This document shows, one piece after another, positions 10,685 to 41,439 of a stretch of 64,000 bases of DNA (position 1 is the first letter of the stretch; each line of letters opens with the position of its first letter). This DNA comes from Paraglomus brasilianum (Eukaryota): positions 1 through 64,000 of the forward strand of contig CAJVPI010000020.1 in assembly GCA_910592345.1 (NCBI GenBank). The letters run 5' to 3'. The notes beneath the pieces are model-generated. The model made no database searches, had not been told where the DNA came from, and was given only the letters and a program-made list of their open reading frames with translations. The translations under genes and the position numbers were made by a program.

Positions 10685-12265
10685 ATGTCTTTACTGGACA
10701 TGTATCGGAGATTATTTTCACGCCGACTGCTTTTATCTTTCGTATTGGTAGCGACACTATTTCGCTTGTTACCATTGGCAAAAACAGAATACACTTTAGA
10801 GACATCTTTTGTTTCAATTAACACAAACTATATAAAAAAGTGTTCGTATGTCGTTAAATTAATAGAAGAGGGTAAACATGTTCCTGTGGAGGAAAGTACA
10901 ATGGACAAATGTCCGTATCTATTGGAACGCTGGTCCAGTATCGAAGGAAATCCAACACATACAGAATTTGCGAGCGGAACGCCTTCAACAGAACCAACTG
11001 AAATCCACATCTCCAGATCAACGCAATCACCGATCCATATGAAACTCTGTCCATACATCTCTCTTCTCTCAGCAGAAAAACGTGCTCGCCTCTCTCATTC
11101 CTCTCCATTGCAAAAAACGATATTTTCTTTTCTTTTTCCTGGTTCGCCAAAAGTTAACTCGTTGCTTGCTACTTTTTACATTTCATCGATACCTAATTTC
11201 ATACTTTTTTTCGTTCCTCCTGATATTCAGCCGCCGTCATTAAACACATTGGTGAGTTTTGCTGTCGGTGGGTTGTTGGGAGATGTGTTTTTGCATTTGT
11301 TACCACAGAGTTTCATGGGAGAGACTAGTGACGATGACGTGCATTTTGTTATGATAGATGAGAAAAGGAATGTGGTTATTGGGTTGGGGTTATTTGCGGG
11401 ATTGGCGTGTTTTTTTGTTATTGACAAGAGTATGAGAATTTTAAGCGGGGATGGACAACATGAGCATGGACATGGACATACCCATGGACATGCCCACGAG
11501 CATCAAAGTACCGTCGAGCGTAAAAGTGTGAAGGAAACGGGAGAGAGTACTGCTATAAATAAGATATCGAACGATGCTAAAAGGCGTAATACAAGCCAAT
11601 CGTCTGATAGTACTTATGACTCTACTTCATCACTATCGTCATCATCGCCATCGTCGACATCATCCTCATCCTCAGTACCGCCATCCTCCTCATCACCAAA
11701 ATCTCCTTCCAAACAACCCTCGACAAGCATTCGCCTTTCAGCATACTTAAATCTTATAGCTGATGCAACCCATAATTTCACTGATGGCCTTGCAATGGCT
11801 GCTTCGTTCTACGCATCTCCGAGTGTTGGTGCGACTACAACTGTTGCTGTATTTTTCCACGAGATACCTCATGAGATTGGTGATTATGCTATACTCGTTC
11901 AATCTGGATTCACCAAACGGTATGCTTTGCTATCACAATTTGGCACTGCCTTGGGAGCATTCCTGGGTACCTTTGCTGGTATTGCTATTGAAGAGTATAG
12001 CAGAGGAGATCATCCGGCGGGGGAAAAAGGATTTAATGTTGGTGATGTTGGTGATGGTATATGGGGTACCAGTGTTCATATGAGTGATTTGGTGATACCA
12101 TTTACTGCTGGTGGCTTTATATATATTGCTACAGTAGGTGTGATTCCCGAGTTGTTGGAAGTATCAGGGAAATTTGGGAAGGATATCAAGCAAGGTATAA
12201 CAGAGTTTGTAGCCATGTTGATTGGAATTGGTATGATGGCTGTTATTGCTTGGAATGAAGACTGA
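10685..12265 (+). CDS. YKE4: ZIP-family zinc transporter, ZIP7/Yke4-like
   Basis: SFAVGGLLGDVFLHLLP, His-rich loop HEHGHGHTHGHAHEH, YLNLIADATHNFTDGLA, HEIPHEIGDYAIL, FTAGGFIYIA. The start codon is not certain. Confidence 0.9.
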   Translation: MSLLDMYRRLFSRRLLLSFVLVATLFRLLPLAKTEYTLETSFVSINTNYIKKCSYVVKLIEEGKHVPVEESTMDKCPYLLERWSSIEGNPTHTEFASGTPSTEPTEIHISRSTQSPIHMKLCPYISLLSAEKRARLSHSSPLQKTIFSFLFPGSPKVNSLLATFYISSIPNFILFFVPPDIQPPSLNTLVSFAVGGLLGDVFLHLLPQSFMGETSDDDVHFVMIDEKRNVVIGLGLFAGLACFFVIDKSMRILSGDGQHEHGHGHTHGHAHEHQSTVERKSVKETGESTAINKISNDAKRRNTSQSSDSTYDSTSSLSSSSPSSTSSSSSVPPSSSSPKSPSKQPSTSIRLSAYLNLIADATHNFTDGLAMAASFYASPSVGATTTVAVFFHEIPHEIGDYAILVQSGFTKRYALLSQFGTALGAFLGTFAGIAIEEYSRGDHPAGEKGFNVGDVGDGIWGTSVHMSDLVIPFTAGGFIYIATVGVIPELLEVSGKFGKDIKQGITEFVAMLIGIGMMAVIAWNED

Positions 12266-15515: not shown

Positions 15516-18012
15516 CTATTCTCGATCTCTAATAGGTAGGAGTTTACTAGAATATTTACTCTCCTTCTCAAAACGTGACAAGGGTTTTACGTCGTTATGA
15601 TAGATGGTATCCCAAATAGGTTTATCAGAGTTCTGTATATCCCATCTAAAATAATAACAAAAAGAAAAAATATCTGGACGATTGTCAGATTGGCATCGCA
15701 ACACAGCATGGCAATATACTTACAAACTGTTGGTGCTGAATAAGGCATCCACGGCAGTAGTCCATTCGAAATATCGTGTACTAAACTATTATCAAATTGT
15801 CTATTTCTGAAAGGCGGTTCACCGCTAGCAAGCAAATACATAATAATACTGAAGGCATATACGTCTGATTTCTGAGTGAATTTGCCCGTAGTGAAAACTT
15901 CCGGCGCAACAAAAGGCAAGACTCCTTTAATGCAAGTTGATTCGTATTTCTCCGATCGAGCTAGACCAAGATCGAGTAGAAGTGGCCTAGGCAGAGGAGA
16001 ATCATTTCCAGGCAAGCTACGGGGCTTGACGTCCATGGCTATGTTGTCTCCATGGAGGTTTCTATGTACCAATCCGCAGCGATGAATCCAATGCAGACCA
16101 AGTTTAAGATCACCCAAAAACGCACATTTCATCCTCCATGTCATTTTGTTAAAATTTTGGTCCAGATAAGACCAAAGATTACCATGCTTAGCATATTGCG
16201 AAATAATCATGTATTCGTGTGTCTCCCTTTGTCGCGCAACTCCATAGTGTCTTAGGAAATCTTCGCTGGAGTAAAAATGTGTAAAACATTTGGCTTGGTT
16301 TACGACCTATGAAGAAAAATAATAAAATGTTGAGATCCAGCATAACTTGAATTAATAATGTTAGAGATCGCTTACCTCGAAAATAAACAAGTCCGTCATC
16401 TCCTCAAAATTTTTAAACGCTTAAAAACAACAAGATCTTCTGAAGCGTTTTTATATTTGGCAGTATAAACTGTTGCATAACCACCCGATCCAATCTCTTC
16501 GATTTCATTAACATCGATATCCTGAATAATCTGTAAATCGTCATCAAATGGCAGATGCAAATGTTTATCCAGTATCGTGTCTATCTCATAGTGGAATACT
16601 AAATAGTAGTCCCGAGTAGACGACTCGTGAGTGATACCAATGATCCAAACATTATCAGTTCCTGACAATATCTCCGGGTAATCTTTGGTCAACTATTGGT
16701 TAAACAATACAATTTGATCAAAACACGTCCTCATTATTCAAATGTAATAATGTCGCTACATTATTTACGCGTAAAAGTTCTTTTACCTGATAAAAATCAA
16801 ACGACTGTGCATACTGTCCATCGACTATTTTCTTGAGTATCACTCAATTTATTTCTTGCTGGTTCTAAACAATCCGCTGTATGTGTGCATCCATGGTGTA
16901 ATAATGGGGTCTCTCGCACGTTTGTCAACCGAGAATACTCTATCCATTGTAGATAGCCATCGTCATCAAACACAGCATCACGCCATGATTTTTCTATAAA
17001 CGAATCCAATGCCTTGTTGCCGGTAGTCCAATAAGGAGCCGTGGTTTTGCAATCAAAACAGAATGACTTTAGCACAGGGTTTAATGGTGCTGTACATGCT
17101 AGACAAAGGCCAACTTCATTTATATCTTTAATTAAAAAATATTCTTGTGATTCATTATCAAATGTAAATCCGATAGTGCTCCAAAAAGTAGGATCAAGCA
17201 AATCCGGATGGTCATCGCATAACTGGAGGAAATCAACGTTAATGACTAGTAATATAAGATTCACTAACATTAATAGTTTACCTTATCATAATCCGTTTCA
17301 TCCGTTATCTCGAGCGGAACCAATTTTACCCTAGAAAGAATGGTTGGAATAGATATAGTCCAGTGATTTCCCTCATCATAAACACGATCAAATGGAATCC
17401 ATTCCAAATAGGCATCATTTGCTGACTTTGTTTGTAATTGAGATTTTTTAATAAACTCGTCAAGTTTCTTATTATTGCTGGTCCACCCATTGGACACTTC
17501 TTTATGGCCACAAATGCACCACACGGGACTACATCTCAGCAATCCACATGCCGAGCAGAAACATATAGGTAATAACTATGACAAAAGCGGTCGCCAGCTA
17601 CCAGATAATAATTATCATAATACCTGGTAAACCCTTCTATCTCAATACTTTCAAGCCATGTCGGATATCTTCTGAAATGACTGACAATAGTAGTCCGTAT
17701 ATCAGCATATTTTGTTAGAAGTGAGTACACTCTGGCAACCTCACTTATATATTCTGGCGTACATTTTTCAGCGCTTCCAAGTAATATCAGCATGTATGTC
17801 AGCGCCCAATTGCGCCTGGCGCGTTTGACATGAATGACGGTTTGACCGTTAATGCTTTTCGGACTTGACACTATGGCAGTAAAGTCCGTTATATCAATCC
17901 ATTTAGGGCGCCTGTCAGCTGCCGTCCGTTTAATACAATTGTCAATTGCCGGACATCCTGAAGCATTAGACGACGACGAATTGGAAGTAAAATTCGAGAT
18001 AGAGTTACCCAT
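15516..18012 (-). pseudogene. Tyrosine-kinase-like protein kinase of the Glomeromycota-expanded type, frameshifted
   Basis: Kinase motifs IGSGGYATVY, HRNLHGDNI (catalytic D replaced by N), DLGLA, GVLPFVAPE, KSDVYAFS. N-terminal repeats WTSNNKKLDEFI...EWIPF and WTTGNKALDSFI...WIEY. Several frame changes occur without splice signals. Confidence 0.8.
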
Positions 18013-18992
18013 CTTGATCTGAACACAAAATTGCCACGAACACGTTCCAATAAATATACCATTCACAGTGACCAGTAAAAATTAAAATAAAATTCCTTTG
18101 ACAAGTTTATTCGAAAAGAAAGCCCTATCTTTTGTTAACCGCCAAACAAAAGCAGCAAATACCGACTTGGAATTAGCTAAAGAATGAAAACAACTATAAG
18201 AGTATTATACGGTTGATGTGTTACCAGTAAAATCTTGTGTATTTATACGAGGGCGTAGCTCGATCAGCGAAGAAAACCTGGTTACCTGTTTTAAATTCAA
18301 CTCAATCTCTGTAAGGGCATTCGTTTGTTTGTTTTTTTTTTGTTTTTTTTTTGCCTCATCTTTCTACGAGAATTAAATTGCAAATGTTGATATCACATAC
18401 TGTAAGTCAGTTTGGTGGCCCATTGTAGTGTTACTTGATGCCATAGACATCATATTGAGCATGGTATTTCTATTATTATAAATTAATTACCAGAGTAAAA
18501 GAGGATATTGACAGCAGACGCATTAACGACGCGCGCAAATTTTATTGCTTCAGGTGATTAAGCTTCGTATTAAAACAAAATATATCATTTCGAGTAGTAT
18601 TATTCTTTAATACTAACAAAGAAGAATATCTCGATAAAAGCTTATTGACACCATGACGGAAATTAATGGGGATGAGCCTATTCGTCTGTATTCTCTCTAA
18701 CCCATTGCAGAGGAATTTAACCTGGATCGGTCTAGTAACCGATCTCCAAGTATCATTAATCATGACGATGAAGTATGTGTATGAAAGTAATTGGCTGACT
18801 TCTCTACGTTACACAACGCCTTCGACCTTTTCAATTCAGTCGCGGCCAAAAGAGCTTATTTGGACAGAATTAATTCGTTCACGATACCACTGACACGTCT
18901 ATATGTTACTTTTAGTGCTTCATTTCTAAGTCTTCTTGTACTATATCATTGTTCAAGATTCATTTTGACCCAAACGTATATTAGAACAACGC

Positions 18993-31655: not shown

Positions 31656-33914
31656 GGACTATTAATCGGGAAGCTGTTCGACGAGCAAGTAAATAAACAT
31701 CATAATAGAAAAAATTTTTCGAAAATGATTATGGAATAAAAATTCGTCAATGCACTACTTACAAAAAAGCGGAACACGTAACTTCCGGGAAAAAGACTTG
31801 TTAGGAGGTTTCAAGACAATGACTCAAAACATACCAGCCGCCTTGCTAAACCCTTTCTTCGGGATAATATATAGACTGGCCTTCTAACAGTTCTAACTTG
31901 AATATCTCTGGAGAATTGTAACATTACTGGAATGGTTTGAGAAATCAAACTTTTTAACAGTCTCGCTGTTAACGTTATAGTGTTCAAATCATCGCAATCC
32001 ACATACGTAATCAAATCAAACAATAAAGTACTACTACTACGTATCATTATTGGCGACCATACAGTACGCCGACGGAACTACAACCACGTTTGTTGATGGT
32101 GAAGAAAGGACTGCTTCGCGAACTTGTTTAGAAAATCCTCCATGACATTATGACAGCCAATTGAAACGACGATAGGGCAAGTTCCGGGATACGTATTACA
32201 AAGAAGGAGCAACGTTTAAGCCAGTCAACTACGTCGCCAACTCTTGTCCATTACCAAAAGCTGCCTTCCGGTATTTCAGCCTTATCGAAGCTATTACTAA
32301 GCAAACTGAATAATATAAGGGTGAAGAAAAAAGCGCTCTTTCAAGTGTTTAAATCAAAGCTTCCCCCTCCGAGAGAAAGCTTCCCTATCGGATATGGCTG
32401 TTGTAAGTACAATCATATTATCCATTTAACGATTTTATGTCACATTTTGACACTACTGTTTCTGATGTACTAGTGGAAGCAGAACGATAGAGTCAAACGG
32501 CGCTTCATCTCAATGGTCCATCAAGCAATGAAGGAGATGAAACGTATCTGAATAATATTGTCATAAGGCAAAGAGCTGAGAGGAGGGCTAGTATAGAGTT
32601 TACTTATGCTAGTGTACAGAATTTGCCTAGACCCTACTGTTACGGTCGAGAATTTTGGGAGAGCGATTTATCTTTCGCGTAGGTGTGTTCGCCGACCGGG
32701 GGATGTTACCAGGCTTAGCTGCCCTTACTGCGATAGTTGTGCAATTAAGCCTCAAGTGACCTATTTTAATTATGCGCGCTTCTCACTCCCTATCCGAGTT
32801 TCAGACACTGATAAGGATAGATATTAAAGAATCGAAGGGGAATAATACTATTTTTAAAAAAGATATATAAGTAGCTCTTCCTCCATCGTCAATATTCATG
32901 TTGTAATATTGTTCATGTTGTGAAATAAAAAAATACTACTGATCTTAGTAGTAGATTATTAGACTGGACACTCCAATAAACGGCTCACTTAAGCTGTGAC
33001 GGAATAGCATTGATCAGATCAAGCTAATAAGCTGTCCACGGATCAACTACGTGAATAACGGAACGAGAGTTCATAACTAATCATCGAGACGAATATTCTT
33101 TAATTAGTTTAGTAAAGACAAGTGGACTAGTCGACACACAATAAATCATGACTGCGGAGGAAGATTTTAAACAGCAACAGTAAGTGAGCTAACGCTGTAA
33201 CATACGTTCTTAAATGAAATGGACCAAATAAGCGCTTAATTTTATCCGTACAAGAATGCTGTAATGGCAGCTCGCTATATCGAAAACAAATAATTTAATG
33301 AGCATTGTTTACCTTTTAATGTTAACAAACATCTGTTTTTCCTGATTTAGTTCGTCCACTGACCAATAAACTAAAAGGTCATTGGGATTGAGAATGTGCG
33401 ATATGCATTGATAAAGCTTTTCAAATTCAACAAACGGAAAAATTTACTATAGATATAAAAGCGAAGATATTTGATCGTAATATGCTATTCTTTCTCAATA
33501 ACCAGCTCATATTTGTACTTTATCGATTGTACTAAGTTTGTTGAAGTAAGCGTCAAACTAACATTGACGCGCTATTTTTTAAGGTATGGTTAAGAAATAC
33601 TTTAATTTCGATAATAAAGAGAAACGATTGCTATTCGTTGTTCTATAGATGCGCTGTAGAGGCACGCAATCTCTTGCCTATTAAGGAAAGCCCTGTAAAC
33701 GTACCCCCATAAATGCAACCCGCGTAAATGCAACCCCATAAAGCTACTAAAACGTTTCCGTATGAAGGAATCTCCGTTATAAACATGACCGCTTCTTTTC
33801 CATAAACATCTACATAATCTTTTCCCTAGAATTCCTCATTCCAACGTCCATATCATTCACTCTCCTCACAATGGCGTGAACCATCTTTGTCCACGGAATT
33901 CCTAATGACCGAAT

Positions 33915-35959: not shown

Positions 35960-37659
35960 ATTGAGCGTGAGGAGATGAGATAATGAGAGTACCAGACAAT
36001 GGTGTGTGGTACCTCGTCTGTCGAAGGTTGGAATTTATATGTTTTTTGTAATCAATTAGGCTATATTAAAATTAGGGGGTACGACATCAAGTCTGTACTA
36101 ATATTAATATATATATTGTATTGTGCTCTATTTCGTGCTAATACAAATTAACATTCTTAGTAATTCTTATTGTGACGTAAACACTGATACTTAGTAATAA
36201 TAAGTCCCTAGCTTACCTAGAAATGTTTGCTTAACTATGATGCGATGATTAACACCACAGAGACCAACTCCTCGTTTTTACAGTACGTACAGTCAAATCG
36301 CGTTAATATTGCCTTTACCATTACGCTTATCATTGCGGGGTCAACGACTATTTTGAGAATCTTTGGAGCAACTAACTAATCTTAGAAATACAGCATGGCC
36401 TGAACTTCCCGATTTGCATGTTGAAGAATGATCTCCTTGTCGGCGTAAAGAATGAGGGACCGGTTGGCAGAAGGTGTCTAGTACTAGAGTAATGGTAATC
36501 AATTAACATTGGAGAGACAGATTGGTGCTTTACTATGCAGGAGGAGAAATTGTAAGGGGCTAATGCCGAAGGATAATCGCAGTTCTTTGCCTTTTGGCAA
36601 GTCATTCCCACAAATCTCAACTGTTCCGGGAACATATTATTTGTGCTCATCACGTGTATTACTCACGGCGCATAATCTAATCTAATATTAATCAGATGAT
36701 CGTTTCATTGATGACACGTTTTCACAAATTCAATTAATTATCTGCACCCTTTGTAATCAAATTTCTTATTAGTATTAGTACGGTTATTTAGTTGTCTTTA
36801 ATACGACTGGGTTGTATATTACAATACGCCTTTCTGCTATTAAACAAGTGTATTAAGCAGTAAAACCATATATGCAACGAAAGTCAAGGAATTAGAATAC
36901 ATACACCATCAAAGCTCATGTCATAAAACTCGTCGGGGTAAATGACACTTCTAAAAATGTGCATGTGTTACTATTCGGTATTGCTATGTGAAACAGTAAT
37001 TATTGTGTCATTATTTATTTGCTGATAAGAGCCCAATTTATTGGTCGCACGATGCAGATCGTTGTTTCATATCCAAGGACGCGAAATGAGTAATAATGGG
37101 ACTTCATCACCGCATTGATACATCAACACTTCAACCACCAACACACAGAAACAATGATACAACGCATTGACAGTTTGGAGCGATGTGTGCGAAAATGGCA
37201 ACCATATAGCAAGTAATAGATCAAGAGTTTAGACGTATCGATCATTTGTTGCGTATGAAAGAAACTGAATTGGAAAGGAGAGAAAAGACTGGAAAAGCAA
37301 AAGAGAAAAAGTTATTATTATATGGAGAGGTGAATTATATTTTTGCTTATTTAATGGCATTGGACAAAGATGGGTATAGGCAACCAACAGAAAGCTTAAC
37401 AAGATTGCCTTGTTATTTTCAACCACAATATGGAATAATGCTTTTATAAAAATGTAAAATATAATTGAGATCTGAACCAAATTATCAGGAAAATCTTTTT
37501 GAAGCGTCGGGATCTTTCTACTTAAGAACACGAGGGACGGATAAATAACTTTTCTGAATTACCTTATAATAATAGAAGTTTTACAATATATATTTAAAAT
37601 CCTTTTCTTCAATGCAAACAGTCACTTTATGGATTGTAACATATCAATAGTAGGCATTA

Positions 37660-38184
37660 CAGTCAACTCTGGCTATACCGGCCTTGCTTATACCAGGCCA
37701 ATTTTGCTGCACCAATTTAATCTCACCCCTTATAACGGCTGAATCTTAATAACTCTGTTTATAACGGCTCCGGCGCAAGTTACATAAATGTAACCATAAC
37801 TCAACCACTCTTAACTATTATTATGAGAATTTCTGCCAAACATCCTAATAAAGACATAGAACCGCATAAACGCATAAGAACTTCATTAACAGGATTGCAG
37901 AAGAAAGAAATATGCCAAATTAAATTAAATAATCCATCTTTACTAACGCAGAAATTGCTGAAGTGTTTGGTTGTGGCAGTAGACTGTTGGTGATGCTATT
38001 CGTGAGAGCAGAAAATGGCTTGCAATAAACGATGATGATTATGCTCAGCTTCGCAAGAATCGAAGACCAAAATGGCCTGCACTTGAGCAAGCCATAACTG
38101 TTTGGCTTGAAAAACTTCTTTTTGGAAATCAGGATATCGATGGCTCCAACAAAGCTAATCAATTTGCTCGACAAATGAATATTG
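37660..38184 (+). mobile_element. 5' end of a pogo/Tigger-type DNA transposon (TIR start plus CENP-B-type HTH transposase fragment), truncated
   Basis: TA|CAGTCAACTCTGGCTATACCGGC at 37658 with subterminal TATA(C/A)CGGC-like repeats. A frameshifted ORF from 37823 reads RTSLTGLQKKEIC...AEIAEVFGC...TVGDAIRESRKWL...RKNRRPKWPALEQAITVWL...KANQFARQMNI (HTH-psq followed by HTH_Tnp_Tc5). Confidence 0.8.
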
Positions 38185-38290
38185 TTGTAATAATCATTTA
38201 TCACACAAATCATGTGGTTACACAATTTCCTACATGTGTAACAATTCTATACTGCACGCCGGTATAGCCATTTCCGGAGAAAGATTCCCG
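38185..38290 (-). ncRNA. Candidate Fanzor omegaRNA scaffold / element right end
   Basis: Overlaps the Fanzor stop codon and extends downstream. Three consecutive stems on the minus strand: CTATAC..GTATAG, GTTACACA..TGTGTAAC, CACAT..GTGTG. The position matches known TnpB/Fanzor omegaRNAs. Expression is not shown. Confidence 0.45.
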
Positions 38291-39111
38291 GAGCGCCATT
38301 TCCATTACAGTCCCACAATTTCGGCACTTGTACATCTCGGTTCCTATTTTTTGAACGCCACCACACCAGCTGCAAGTTTTTGAAGTATAGGTCTCATTTT
38401 GGATAATAACATGGACCCCTAATTCTTCTGCTTTAGCCACCAGACGTTGGCGAAATTGATGGTGGCCCCAACAGAGCATTTTACGAACGGTTTTTCGTGT
38501 TATCTTTCCTGTTTCTCGATTTACCATATTCGACACCTCAAAAGGAAGAATGATATGGCATCAAATTTGCGAGTAAAAAATGCGACACTCTTTTTATAAA
38601 CTTATTTTGCAGGTGTTTGATTTTTCGTCGCATCTGAAATATTGCCTTATTATTATCAAGTCACAAGGCATTTTTCTTCTTACGTTTTGAACTAGAGGCA
38701 GCCAGCTTGTCCTTTATAGAAAAAAGATCATCCATATGCGAATAATTCGTCTAATGTCGTATAGGCCAATTTACCTACACCTTTAGTAGGAGAGTACCAT
38801 GTGATAGGCCAGGGTTAATGGAAACTGCATGAACAGAACTATCCGTTTGGGTTTCGCGGAGTTGTTTTTGCGTCTCGTAAACCCATGAAAATTTCCATCA
38901 TTAGTTTTGCGAATATATTAATATGTGATCTTGCAATTGAACGCTATTCTGTGAGGAACAGGCCACTTATTATTATACCTTTTTTTCTCGAAACCACAAA
39001 TCGCGTTTATGATAACAGGCTTATGACGGTATGCGATGGATTATGGAGATGGGTGCTATAAAAAGGTTCCACGTGGTGGTTGATCCTATATTTTGGTTAA
39101 TTATCTTGTCC

Positions 39112-39120
39112 CTAAAATTA

Positions 39121-39174
<54 letters not shown>

Positions 39175-39245
39175 ACAAAACAAAACAAAACCAAACAAAC
39201 CAAACAAAACCAAACCAAACAAAAAACAAAAAACAACAATCATAC
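39112..39245 (-). other. Spliceosomal intron inside the Fanzor gene
   Basis: Donor AG|GTATGA, branch-like TACTAAT, acceptor TTTTAG|G. Splicing yields ...ALTAR-DKIINQN. Confidence 0.8.
39125..39238. repeat. (AAAT)n microsatellite (about 12 units) followed by a degenerate (CAAA/CAAAA)n tract
   Basis: Seen directly; lies entirely within the Fanzor intron. Confidence 0.95.
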
Positions 39246-40309
39246 CTAGCAGTTAATGCTCCTCATCGATAATGTTTGCAGGCGCTTTGCCATGTGTACT
39301 TGAAGTAACACTCCAATACGCACAACAATTCGCACGAATTTGCGTTCACCCCATACGCATGATTTTTGAAGTCTCTTGTCCTCATGCTCATTAACGTCTT
39401 TTCCTACACGAACATCCGTGTAAAGCTTAAGCTTATCTTCAATAGGTTGAGATTTTATCCAAACCCGTCGTGATGGACCAATATGCGAATCTTTGGTATA
39501 GAAACGGCGGTATCGACTCCAGCGGACAACTGCATTATAAGCATATCTCGACAAGCTCATCCACCGTTTCAATAGCTGCTTTTGAAGGTAATTTGAATAT
39601 ACTTTGATTAGCGGCGTACGATGGAGAGCTTCCAAGTGTTGTCGTTTGTTGCATGCTGCTGTTGTTCTGATCTTGCGCTTTTTTCCTTGTTTGGGATTCT
39701 CGTCGGGCGACTTTTCTTCCTCGCTTGATTGTAAGAATATCTTGGGAAAGCCCGTGCTCGTCAGAGGTCGCTTCGTTGACGAAAATCATGAGTTTTGTAG
39801 TATGGGGAGAGTGGATGAGGTCGCGCAGAGTCGGTCACAATGGGCAACGACAATTTCTGAGACCATACCGCGACTTTTCCGTTCCAATAAGGTCTTAGGT
39901 TCGTAGGTTGGGAGTTGTTTATAGGTTGGGGAGCTGAGGACCTCCTTTTGCTTAAACCCTTTTTTAGTGGTGGGTGGTGGTTGCTTTGGCGGTGGTGGTG
40001 TTAGCATTGATTGAGGAGAGAGCTTATGATTTTCAAATAAGCAAAATATTGCAATGGTTAAAGAATTTGGGGAATAATGTCTTTAAATATGTTTATGGTT
40101 GCCGGTGCTTGAATGGTGGAGCCTGTGCTTGCATTGAATGAAGCTATTGTCTACGAAAACGGTTCTGAAGCTTTGACTACGAGCATACAACTCTCTCGGC
40201 AATACCCGACGAGTGAGGAATGATTACACATAGACCGGTTGCTTAGTAAAGGTTGCATCGCATTGAACAGCTACACGTATTAGCATTAGACCACTCGCTT
40301 TTGTCAGAG

Positions 40310-40580
40310 AATAGAGTCGCTTCTGAAATATTTTGCCATTCTTCTTCCATAAATTGCTTTAACTTCTCACAATTTTTTGGTGTCTTCTCTCAACATTATA
40401 TTTAACGATACACAAAAGATTTTCTATTGAATTTAAATAGATGGCCAATCCACGTATTTTTCTGAATAAAATCTTTAGCAACTCTAGTATTTGTATACTT
40501 GGGTCATTGTCCTGCTGGAACTTCCACCTTTTACCAAGCATTTGATTGATTTCAGGACATAAAAGTTTGCATTCATTGGA
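40310..40580 (-). mobile_element. Tc1/IS630-type DDE transposase C-terminal remnant
   Basis: Across frameshifts: MNANFY...PEINQMLGKRWKFQQDNDPKYT...DWPS..LNSIENL..IVKYNVERR...LKQFMEEEWQNISEATL. Confidence 0.85.
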
Positions 40581-41439
40581 TTATTTTGGAAAAGTTATTA
40601 TCATACGCGTTTGTAACAAACCGGAAAATATACCTTTTTTTTTGTGTTACACACTGTACATATCAGATGTTTTGTTGCGGCATTACAGTATTTGAATACG
40701 CCAAGATCCATCAATCGAGTTTCTGGCGCAGAGTCTGGTTGTAAATAACAACCAATACGTCAATAGTTGTATAAACATAGCCATTTCTTTTGCAAAGTAG
40801 CAACTTAAAGATGTAGTGGGTACTTGTCTGCCCATAACACTACTCGATTGTATTAAAACTTGATTGGCAACAGATAATATGAAAGTGGTCAACCTTTATT
40901 TTAAATTTGCAATCAGCAATCCAAGGAATACAAAGACGTTGAAGGAAGCTGGTTAAACTCGCCGCTCAGAAGCGTAAGATCCTATGCTACAATTTTTTAC
41001 AAGCAGATGAATATTTGGTAATTTAAAAGCACACCAGTAATTGATTTTGTAGAAGACAGCGCATTGGTGAACTAGGACTATTAAATTTAAATTTTCTATT
41101 CGTTTTGATGATGTAACTTCATTCTTGTCCATAAACGATATGCGGATGATTATGCGCAGTAGAATGTATAAAGAATGTTTCGATAACTTGGCTCTTTAAT
41201 GTTGCACAACGCTACAAAGCAAATGAAACTTTCACTTGCGCTTAAACAGAAGAAGCCGTGATTATAAGCACTGAGCAATGATGACGTTTTTATCCGTCTA
41301 TTGTTGTGGCTGAAATAATCACAAGGAAATCTTGTGGCGCCTTGGGCAGCCTTGGCCAATAGGCATCTTGGCGGCCAAGATCTCGGCCCCCAAATTTATA
41401 TACCCGCTCCACATCGTTTACTATCCAGACTCAAACAAG

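Follow-up and report, generated by a model that had tools for sequence, protein, structure and literature searches.

The minus strand of a 64,000-nucleotide stretch of DNA from the mycorrhizal fungus Paraglomus brasilianum (contig CAJVPI010000020.1, positions 1 to 64,000; the whole stretch is here called the window) carries, at positions 37629-40057, what is very probably a dead member of a multicopy family of IS607-type transposons, in which the transposase gene tnpA overlaps a Fanzor2 nuclease gene in the +1 frame. A probability of about 0.85 is assigned to this reading, which for the intact copies includes a model of homing by TnpA and Fanzor2, both produced through leaky scanning. The window copy was compared with 17 metagenome loci (L001-L017) and with related proteins; published papers are cited for those parts of their text that were accessible.

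The Fanzor2 pseudogene

The nuclease gene in the window is a dead Fanzor2 pseudogene, from a family already catalogued. Translation of the minus strand recovered all the motifs that an earlier sequence-only reading had named, each where that reading had placed it: a Pro/Lys-rich N-terminus beginning at the ATG 40007, NS*FS with its TGA stop at 39788-39786, KVY..QKQLLKRWMSLSRYAYN, the RuvC-I motif SINPG (38822-38808), PFEVSNMV, the RuvC-II E at 38395, six residues ahead of the CxxC, and NGAPGIFLR. The decay that it described is equally real: the D of RuvC-I is replaced by N at 38816, the RuvC-III DRD has been removed by a 10-nt deletion at 38301, a TGA interrupts NS*F, and the comparison with L001 gives about 34 indels, 19 with a length that is not a multiple of three and one of 87 nt, counts that vary with the alignment chosen. 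Two of the three catalytic residues are gone and the E is kept. The sequence-only reading had allowed for intact members elsewhere in the genome; other copies of the same sample retain DPG and DRD (contig loose ends at 38804 and 38301), the NPG of the window being a decay change.

The pseudogene is divided into two exons. Exon 1 (39246-40007, minus strand), identified by its match to L001 (756 nt aligned at 87% identity and interrupted by 18 indels), comprises the Pro-rich start, the N-terminal domain with NS*F, a basic thumb/NLS-like stretch and the start of WED/REC. Exon 2 (38271-39111, minus strand) contains WED, RuvC-I, the RuvC-II E and the zinc ribbon, with RuvC-III deleted; its identity is 84% to the protein P0001 and, at the nucleotide level, 87% to L011, with 17 indels. 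About 534 codons' worth could be counted, close to the roughly 540 claimed before, and the description of the gene as a full-length Fanzor2 holds for its identity and not for its length, since intact relatives have 641-685 aa and this copy has 34 indels. Within the span first proposed, 38247-40007, the stretch 38270-38247 is part of a foreign insert, and the right end proper of the element is found at 37657-37629. The IS607 transposase gene that overlaps Fanzor2 had been overlooked, as had both ends of the element and the region of the omegaRNA.

Relationship to other Fanzor proteins

A C-terminal piece of 86 aa (38560-38303), within exon 2, matches the Pfam profile PF07282 with E 3.8e-15, and 30 relatives, with identities up to 86%, were obtained. 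The Fanzor fingerprint is composed of DPG, an alternative E, a zinc finger and D (PMC10711439); the RuvC-I DPG motif is present in 30/30 family proteins tested, the window copy having NPG, and 30/30 family proteins likewise have the E six residues ahead of the zinc finger, with the RuvC-III D following. A profile built from 32 relatives matched the mimivirus Fanzor2 9b0l with E 2.3e-56, the next match being at 8e-22. The predicted model of P0036 has a mean pLDDT of 66, with values under 50 in the N-terminal region (residues 1-83, 104-124 and 149-186); in Foldseek its best match was 9b0l (E 5.4e-21), with Fanzor1 (SpuFz1) at about 2e-5, and the VIA comparison with 9b0l gave Z 21.8 and rmsd 5.6, with 432 aligned. 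Among the matches listed, 9b0l alone aligns from the N-terminal domain onwards (model residue 83, chain residue 53). Overall, the family is closer to ApmFz2, the protein of 9b0l, and to the pro-Fanzors than to Fanzor1, N-terminal domain included. Natural full-length family proteins are P0274, P0035-P0037, P0043 and P0256; RNA-guided DNA cleavage is predicted for the intact members.

A FastTree tree was built from 130 rows, which included neither Fanzor1 nor named Fz2 sequences and lacked P0052, removed by the length filter; it carries long-branch warnings. In it the window copy adjoins P0001, within a clade of 31 rows (SH-like 99) where Cetraspora, Diversispora and Borealophlyctis proteins are found and bacterial or viral rows are absent. 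In P0048, a protein model from Borealophlyctis, Fanzor2 is preceded by FHA and HMG-box domains; the arrangement may reflect either a genuine fusion or the merging of gene models.

The clade, the neighbouring gene discussed below and the profile matches together bear out a decayed Fanzor2 of a Glomeromycota fungus. Conversely, the notion that Fanzor2 is rare in fungi and the family undescribed finds no support: Fz2 'is found broadly in fungi' according to PMC10432273, whose Supplementary Table 1 has FZ2 rows from Cetraspora (CAG8554615.1), Geosiphon (KAG9286232.1) and Diversispora (RHZ45176.1). These rows remove the novelty of the family, a loss that the sequence-only reading had itself attached to placement inside a described one. 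CAG8554615.1 corresponds to P0052 in record name and length, and the match between P0052 and P0017 has E 4.8e-75; the C-terminal tail of KAG9286232.1 is that of the family described here. In the accessible parts of PMC10432273 these Glomeromycota rows are partial gene models on a tree, without ends, TnpA, intron or omegaRNA. Glomeromycota Fanzor hits, one of them from P. brasilianum, are also listed in PMC10711439.

Overlap of tnpA and Fanzor2

The metagenome loci with upstream DNA carry a second ORF, which is an IS607 transposase (MerR-HTH plus serine recombinase). The TnpA of L008 scores 148.5 bits with NF033518, for which the cut-off is 110, and the window piece only 13.8 bits against the same cut-off of 110; tblastn with the L008 TnpA located a remnant of the serine recombinase in the other frame within Fanzor2 exon 1 (39535-39953, minus strand), with matches at 39858-39538 (E 3.9e-28) and 39953-39825 (E 2.9e-9). 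From the position of these remnants it follows that the N-terminal frame proposed in the sequence-only reading mixes both proteins: part of it is Fanzor2, and KQKE..RGMVSEIVVAHCDRLC (39953-39825) is transposase. The distance from the tnpA ATG to the Fanzor ATG is 157 nt, in the +1 frame, in 5/5 loci with both, and the overlap of about 600 nt corresponds to the first 200 or so Fanzor2 codons; within it, reading the TnpA strand KLVVLF in the +1 frame yields the NSWF motif of Fanzor2.

Divergence between loci reveals which of the frames constrains the overlap. In its core, L008 and L012 differ at 24/127, 14/127 and 53/126 of the first, second and third TnpA codon positions; in 4/4 pairs the divergence tracks the TnpA codons, the third position being the most variable and the second the least, as in the TnpA-only region, and the pattern switches to the Fanzor frame only past the catalytic domain. 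The +1 frame contains 0 stops in L008, 0 in L003 and 3 in L012, with about 8-9 expected from synonymous recoding. Judged from these patterns, both frames were maintained, with TnpA under purifying selection. Among bacterial and viral loci, 114 were surveyed and 58 scored, that is, those with a TnpA match and a full TnpB by the filter; the unscored ones have no TnpA match or no full TnpB, and several of the scored ones are near-duplicates. TnpB lies in the +1 frame of tnpA in 58/58, with a median overlap of about 500 nt that exceeds 300 nt in 53/58; in L129 it is almost nil because TnpB is broken there. On this distribution, the overlap of tnpA and TnpB is ancestral.

The tnpA frame might instead be a relic in fungi, with the Fanzor2 frame alone in use and copies spreading through homing, in trans or in some other way. 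A TnpA lesion, either a stop or a frameshift, is present in 5/5 loci with a tnpA start, the window copy has neither that start nor the HTH region, and many viral loci have TnpB and no TnpA match, all of which would suit such a relic; however, the divergence of the overlap core fits the TnpA codon structure in all four pairs, and the Fanzor frames of these same copies have decayed too, which leaves this explanation improbable. No fully intact element was found at the DNA level among the loci compared.

Near the Fanzor start, L002, L003, L008 and L012 have an ACC/CCA repeat, read as poly-Thr in TnpA and as poly-Pro in Fanzor2; relative to L008, its length differs by 12 nt in L002, 27 nt in L003 and 6 nt in L012, and both frames are kept. 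In three public Glomeromycota gene models, P0045, P0052 and P0066, the TnpA and Fanzor2 frames are spliced into one protein, likely through faulty annotation of the overlapping genes. Furthermore, most database entries begin past the overlap, indicating that gene callers truncate these proteins.

That the ORFs of IS607 overlap, often, is already published (PMC3673617, PMC6188088, PMC9956272); the accessible part of PMC10691335 contains nothing on the overlap of tnpA and TnpB. In the literature searched, of which figures, ISfinder, Repbase and most subscription papers were outside the scope, no work was found that places the Fanzor2 N-terminal domain inside tnpA, nor any paper on overprinting and TnpB. 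In PMC11832414 the N-terminal domain is treated as a unique extension, and TnpA is never mentioned in the portion available; the same paper reports that Asn82 and Ser83 of 9b0l, which align with the NSWF motif, contact the omegaRNA pseudoknot.

The intron and probable nuclear transposition

A spliceosomal-type intron with GT..AG borders (39112-39245, minus strand, 134 nt), correctly recognized in the sequence-only reading, separates the two exons; L001, L008, L010 and L011 share it with the window, at an identical AG|G. Its absence from L002, which is itself 95-99% identical to L001, is precise, and the more distant L003, L004, L005, L006, L009, L012, L013 and L015 also lack it. A compound TTTG/TTTA microsatellite (39118-39240) accounts for its growth to 134 nt in the window, versus 91 nt in L001. 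Introns are known to occur in Fanzors (PMC10530073); the intron-less L002 and P0017 may be spliced transcripts or alleles that precede the intron.

The intron-bearing L001 and L011 have sharp CCG ends and unlike right flanks; the element thus likely moved after the intron was gained, i.e. in a nucleus. The jumps likely took place within fungal nuclei, the hosts of the metagenome loci being presumed ones. Whether IS607 transposes in eukaryotic genomes was left undecided in PMC3673617, and the sharp end and differing locations of copies that carry the intron represent sequence evidence of IS607 transposition in fungal nuclei.

Element ends, putative omegaRNA and predicted TAM

At the right end, CCG is found in 8/9 loci that reach it and CCA in one, and the flank differs in each. 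At the left end, ACCG is present in 3/6 loci with upstream DNA (L003, L012 and L015) and not in L002, L006 and L008. L003 has a 13-bp repeat close to each of its ends. The relatives appear to end at CCG without TIRs, and no empty site was encountered among the loci; the published IS607 core is GG, here CCG on the coding strand. In the window, the left-end remnant (40012-40057, minus strand), recognized by its similarity to the corresponding ends of L003 and L008, begins with CCA, where relatives have CCG, so that the end reads ACCA; the left-end deletions in this copy also took the tnpA start and the HTH region. The right-end remnant (37629-37657, minus strand), recognized by comparison with L001, corresponds to the 3' portion of the scaffold of the putative omegaRNA, with the terminal CCG lost; it has 4 mismatches to a 22-nt right-end stretch of L001 and is the sole such match in the window.

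The last 140 nt or so of 8 loci share a conserved predicted fold, in which 98% of cells are paired, against 36-53% in slid controls; two-sided changes occur in 4/40 pairs, and a z of -3.35 was obtained for L007. Support for the fold is moderate, since the eight sequences are related, and a 6-bp long-range helix is invariant and hence yields no covariation signal. The right end would encode a conserved structured RNA, the putative omegaRNA, followed by a variable guide. Following the IS607 logic of PMC10711439, the empty site would consist of CCG plus guide, from which a 5'-CCG TAM is predicted for intact family members.

Foreign insert and genomic surroundings

The Fanzor2 3' end and the omegaRNA region are split by a foreign 611-bp insert (37660-38270, plus strand), delimited by its terminal inverted repeats (37670-37682 and 38258-38270, with flanking TA present) and by joined contigs. 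The X1 and X3 contigs, which derive from one sample, possibly the window's own source, bridge the insert at 37651/38274 and at 37650/38301, and letters of the Fanzor 3' end lie between these points; the insert must therefore have arrived later. From its motifs it is tentatively taken to be pogo/Tigger-like, and Pfam gave no match for it or for the Tc1-like piece described below. A 13-nt inverted match (37670/38258), considered as a guide-target pair, was rejected because it consists of the insert's own terminal inverted repeats.

Immediately upstream of the element, 40190-40600 (minus strand) presumably contains a decayed Tc1/mariner-like transposase, as suggested by the motifs FQQDND.. and LNSIENL.., and a TIR may end near 40188. 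The 3' flank of L017 is matched by two stretches of the window, 31812-31903 and 40457-40520, which suggests a further Tc1-like piece near 31800. The highest contig depth of the stretch, in 4/4 runs, is at 40036-40149 (tied with 39466-39579 in X6), where loose ends occur at 40120; this segment probably represents a further family of short repeats next to the left end.

The same-strand Tc1-like remnant at about 40190-40600 and the TIR element at 37660-38270, both tentatively named from their motifs, would allow Fanzor2 to be seen as cargo of a DDE transposon, either the upstream or the downstream one. Some Fanzor2s do lie within non-IS607 TIR elements (PMC13565253). Nevertheless, this origin is highly improbable: the relatives have CCG ends without TIRs and a TnpA of their own, Tc1-like motifs occur in none of the relatives' upstream stretches examined, and the junction of same-sample contigs across the insert, which makes it a later arrival, largely refutes the cargo explanation.

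The window carries intron-rich fungal genes. A zinc transporter (11240-12262) is 88% identical to Paraglomus brasilianum, the next named species being at 63% or less, which makes the host a Paraglomus-like member of the Glomeromycota, and 15587-18081 (minus strand) is presumably a fragmented kinase gene, of a type expanded in Glomeromycota. That the DNA is bacterial or of giant-virus origin, as a contaminant, an endobacterium or an endogenised virus, is the least credible explanation of all, since, despite close homologues in cyanobacteria and in viral contigs, the GT..AG intron, the fungal genes around, the well-supported fungal clade devoid of bacterial and viral rows and a viral scan with P0017 that gave no relative stand against it.

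Proposed mechanism

For intact copies of the IS607-type transposon with two overlapping frames, TnpA would bind the 13-bp repeat near both ends and move the element by recombination within the CCG core, and Fanzor2 would bind the omegaRNA formed by the last ~140 nt plus flank. The complex of Fanzor2 and omegaRNA would then cut empty sites adjoining the 5'-CCG TAM, and repair would restore the element (homing). Both proteins likely derive from a single capped, spliced mRNA, Fanzor2 being reached by leaky scanning past a weak tnpA start. Leaky scanning is proposed because position -3 is a pyrimidine at the tnpA ATG in 5/5 loci and a purine at the Fanzor ATG in 7/7; its simple form is weakened by an extra ATG between the two starts in 3/5 loci and by upstream ATGs in 5/5. 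The window copy is incapable of all these steps. That mycorrhizal fungi host a working transposon of this kind, with one spliced mRNA, two frames, an N-terminal domain born by overprinting tnpA and CCG homing, is tentative, and is held at somewhat less than even odds.

Known elements and significance

Eukaryotic IS607-Fanzor2 elements have been defined in PMC3627910 and PMC13565253, the name IS607EU being that of PMC13565253. Like the element described here, IS607EU combines a serine recombinase with Fanzor2, and the lack of TIRs and a short core at the ends are apparently common to both; the examples of IS607EU in the accessible text are amoebal, algal-virus and giant-virus, whereas the present element is nuclear in Glomeromycota, with a Fanzor intron and a CCG end. 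ApmFz2 (9b0l; PMC11832414) resembles the family in the order of its domains, in having an N-terminal domain and a rearranged RuvC, and in its IS607 context; differently from it, ApmFz2 is about 120 aa shorter, at ~20% identity, and its TAM is GGG, compared with the predicted CCG. Pro-Fanzors, the cyanobacterial IS607 TnpBs of PMC10711439, have the same fingerprint (DPG, alternative E) and, in 10/10 scored bacterial loci, the same +1 overlap with tnpA, but they are prokaryotic, intron-free and placed in separate clades of the FastTree tree. Finally, NlovFz2 from Naegleria lovaniensis, likened here by its description in PMC10432273, has a measured 5'-CCG TAM, the very motif predicted in this work, and in the accessible text of that paper no clear transposase association is reported for it.

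Thus, what was already known is the Fanzor2 family; the anatomy of an IS607 element in mycorrhizal fungi was not found described, and the literature search returned nothing on IS607 in arbuscular mycorrhizal fungi. The overlap is here documented in a nuclear, intron-bearing family in which, on the evidence of codon divergence, TnpA is under purifying selection. The window copy itself is a fossil; with the natural full-length proteins, the right-end RNA and the predicted CCG TAM, cleavage could readily be assayed. The overlap would also explain the origin of the Fanzor2 N-terminal domain, whose NSWF motif is KLVVLF of TnpA read in the +1 frame.
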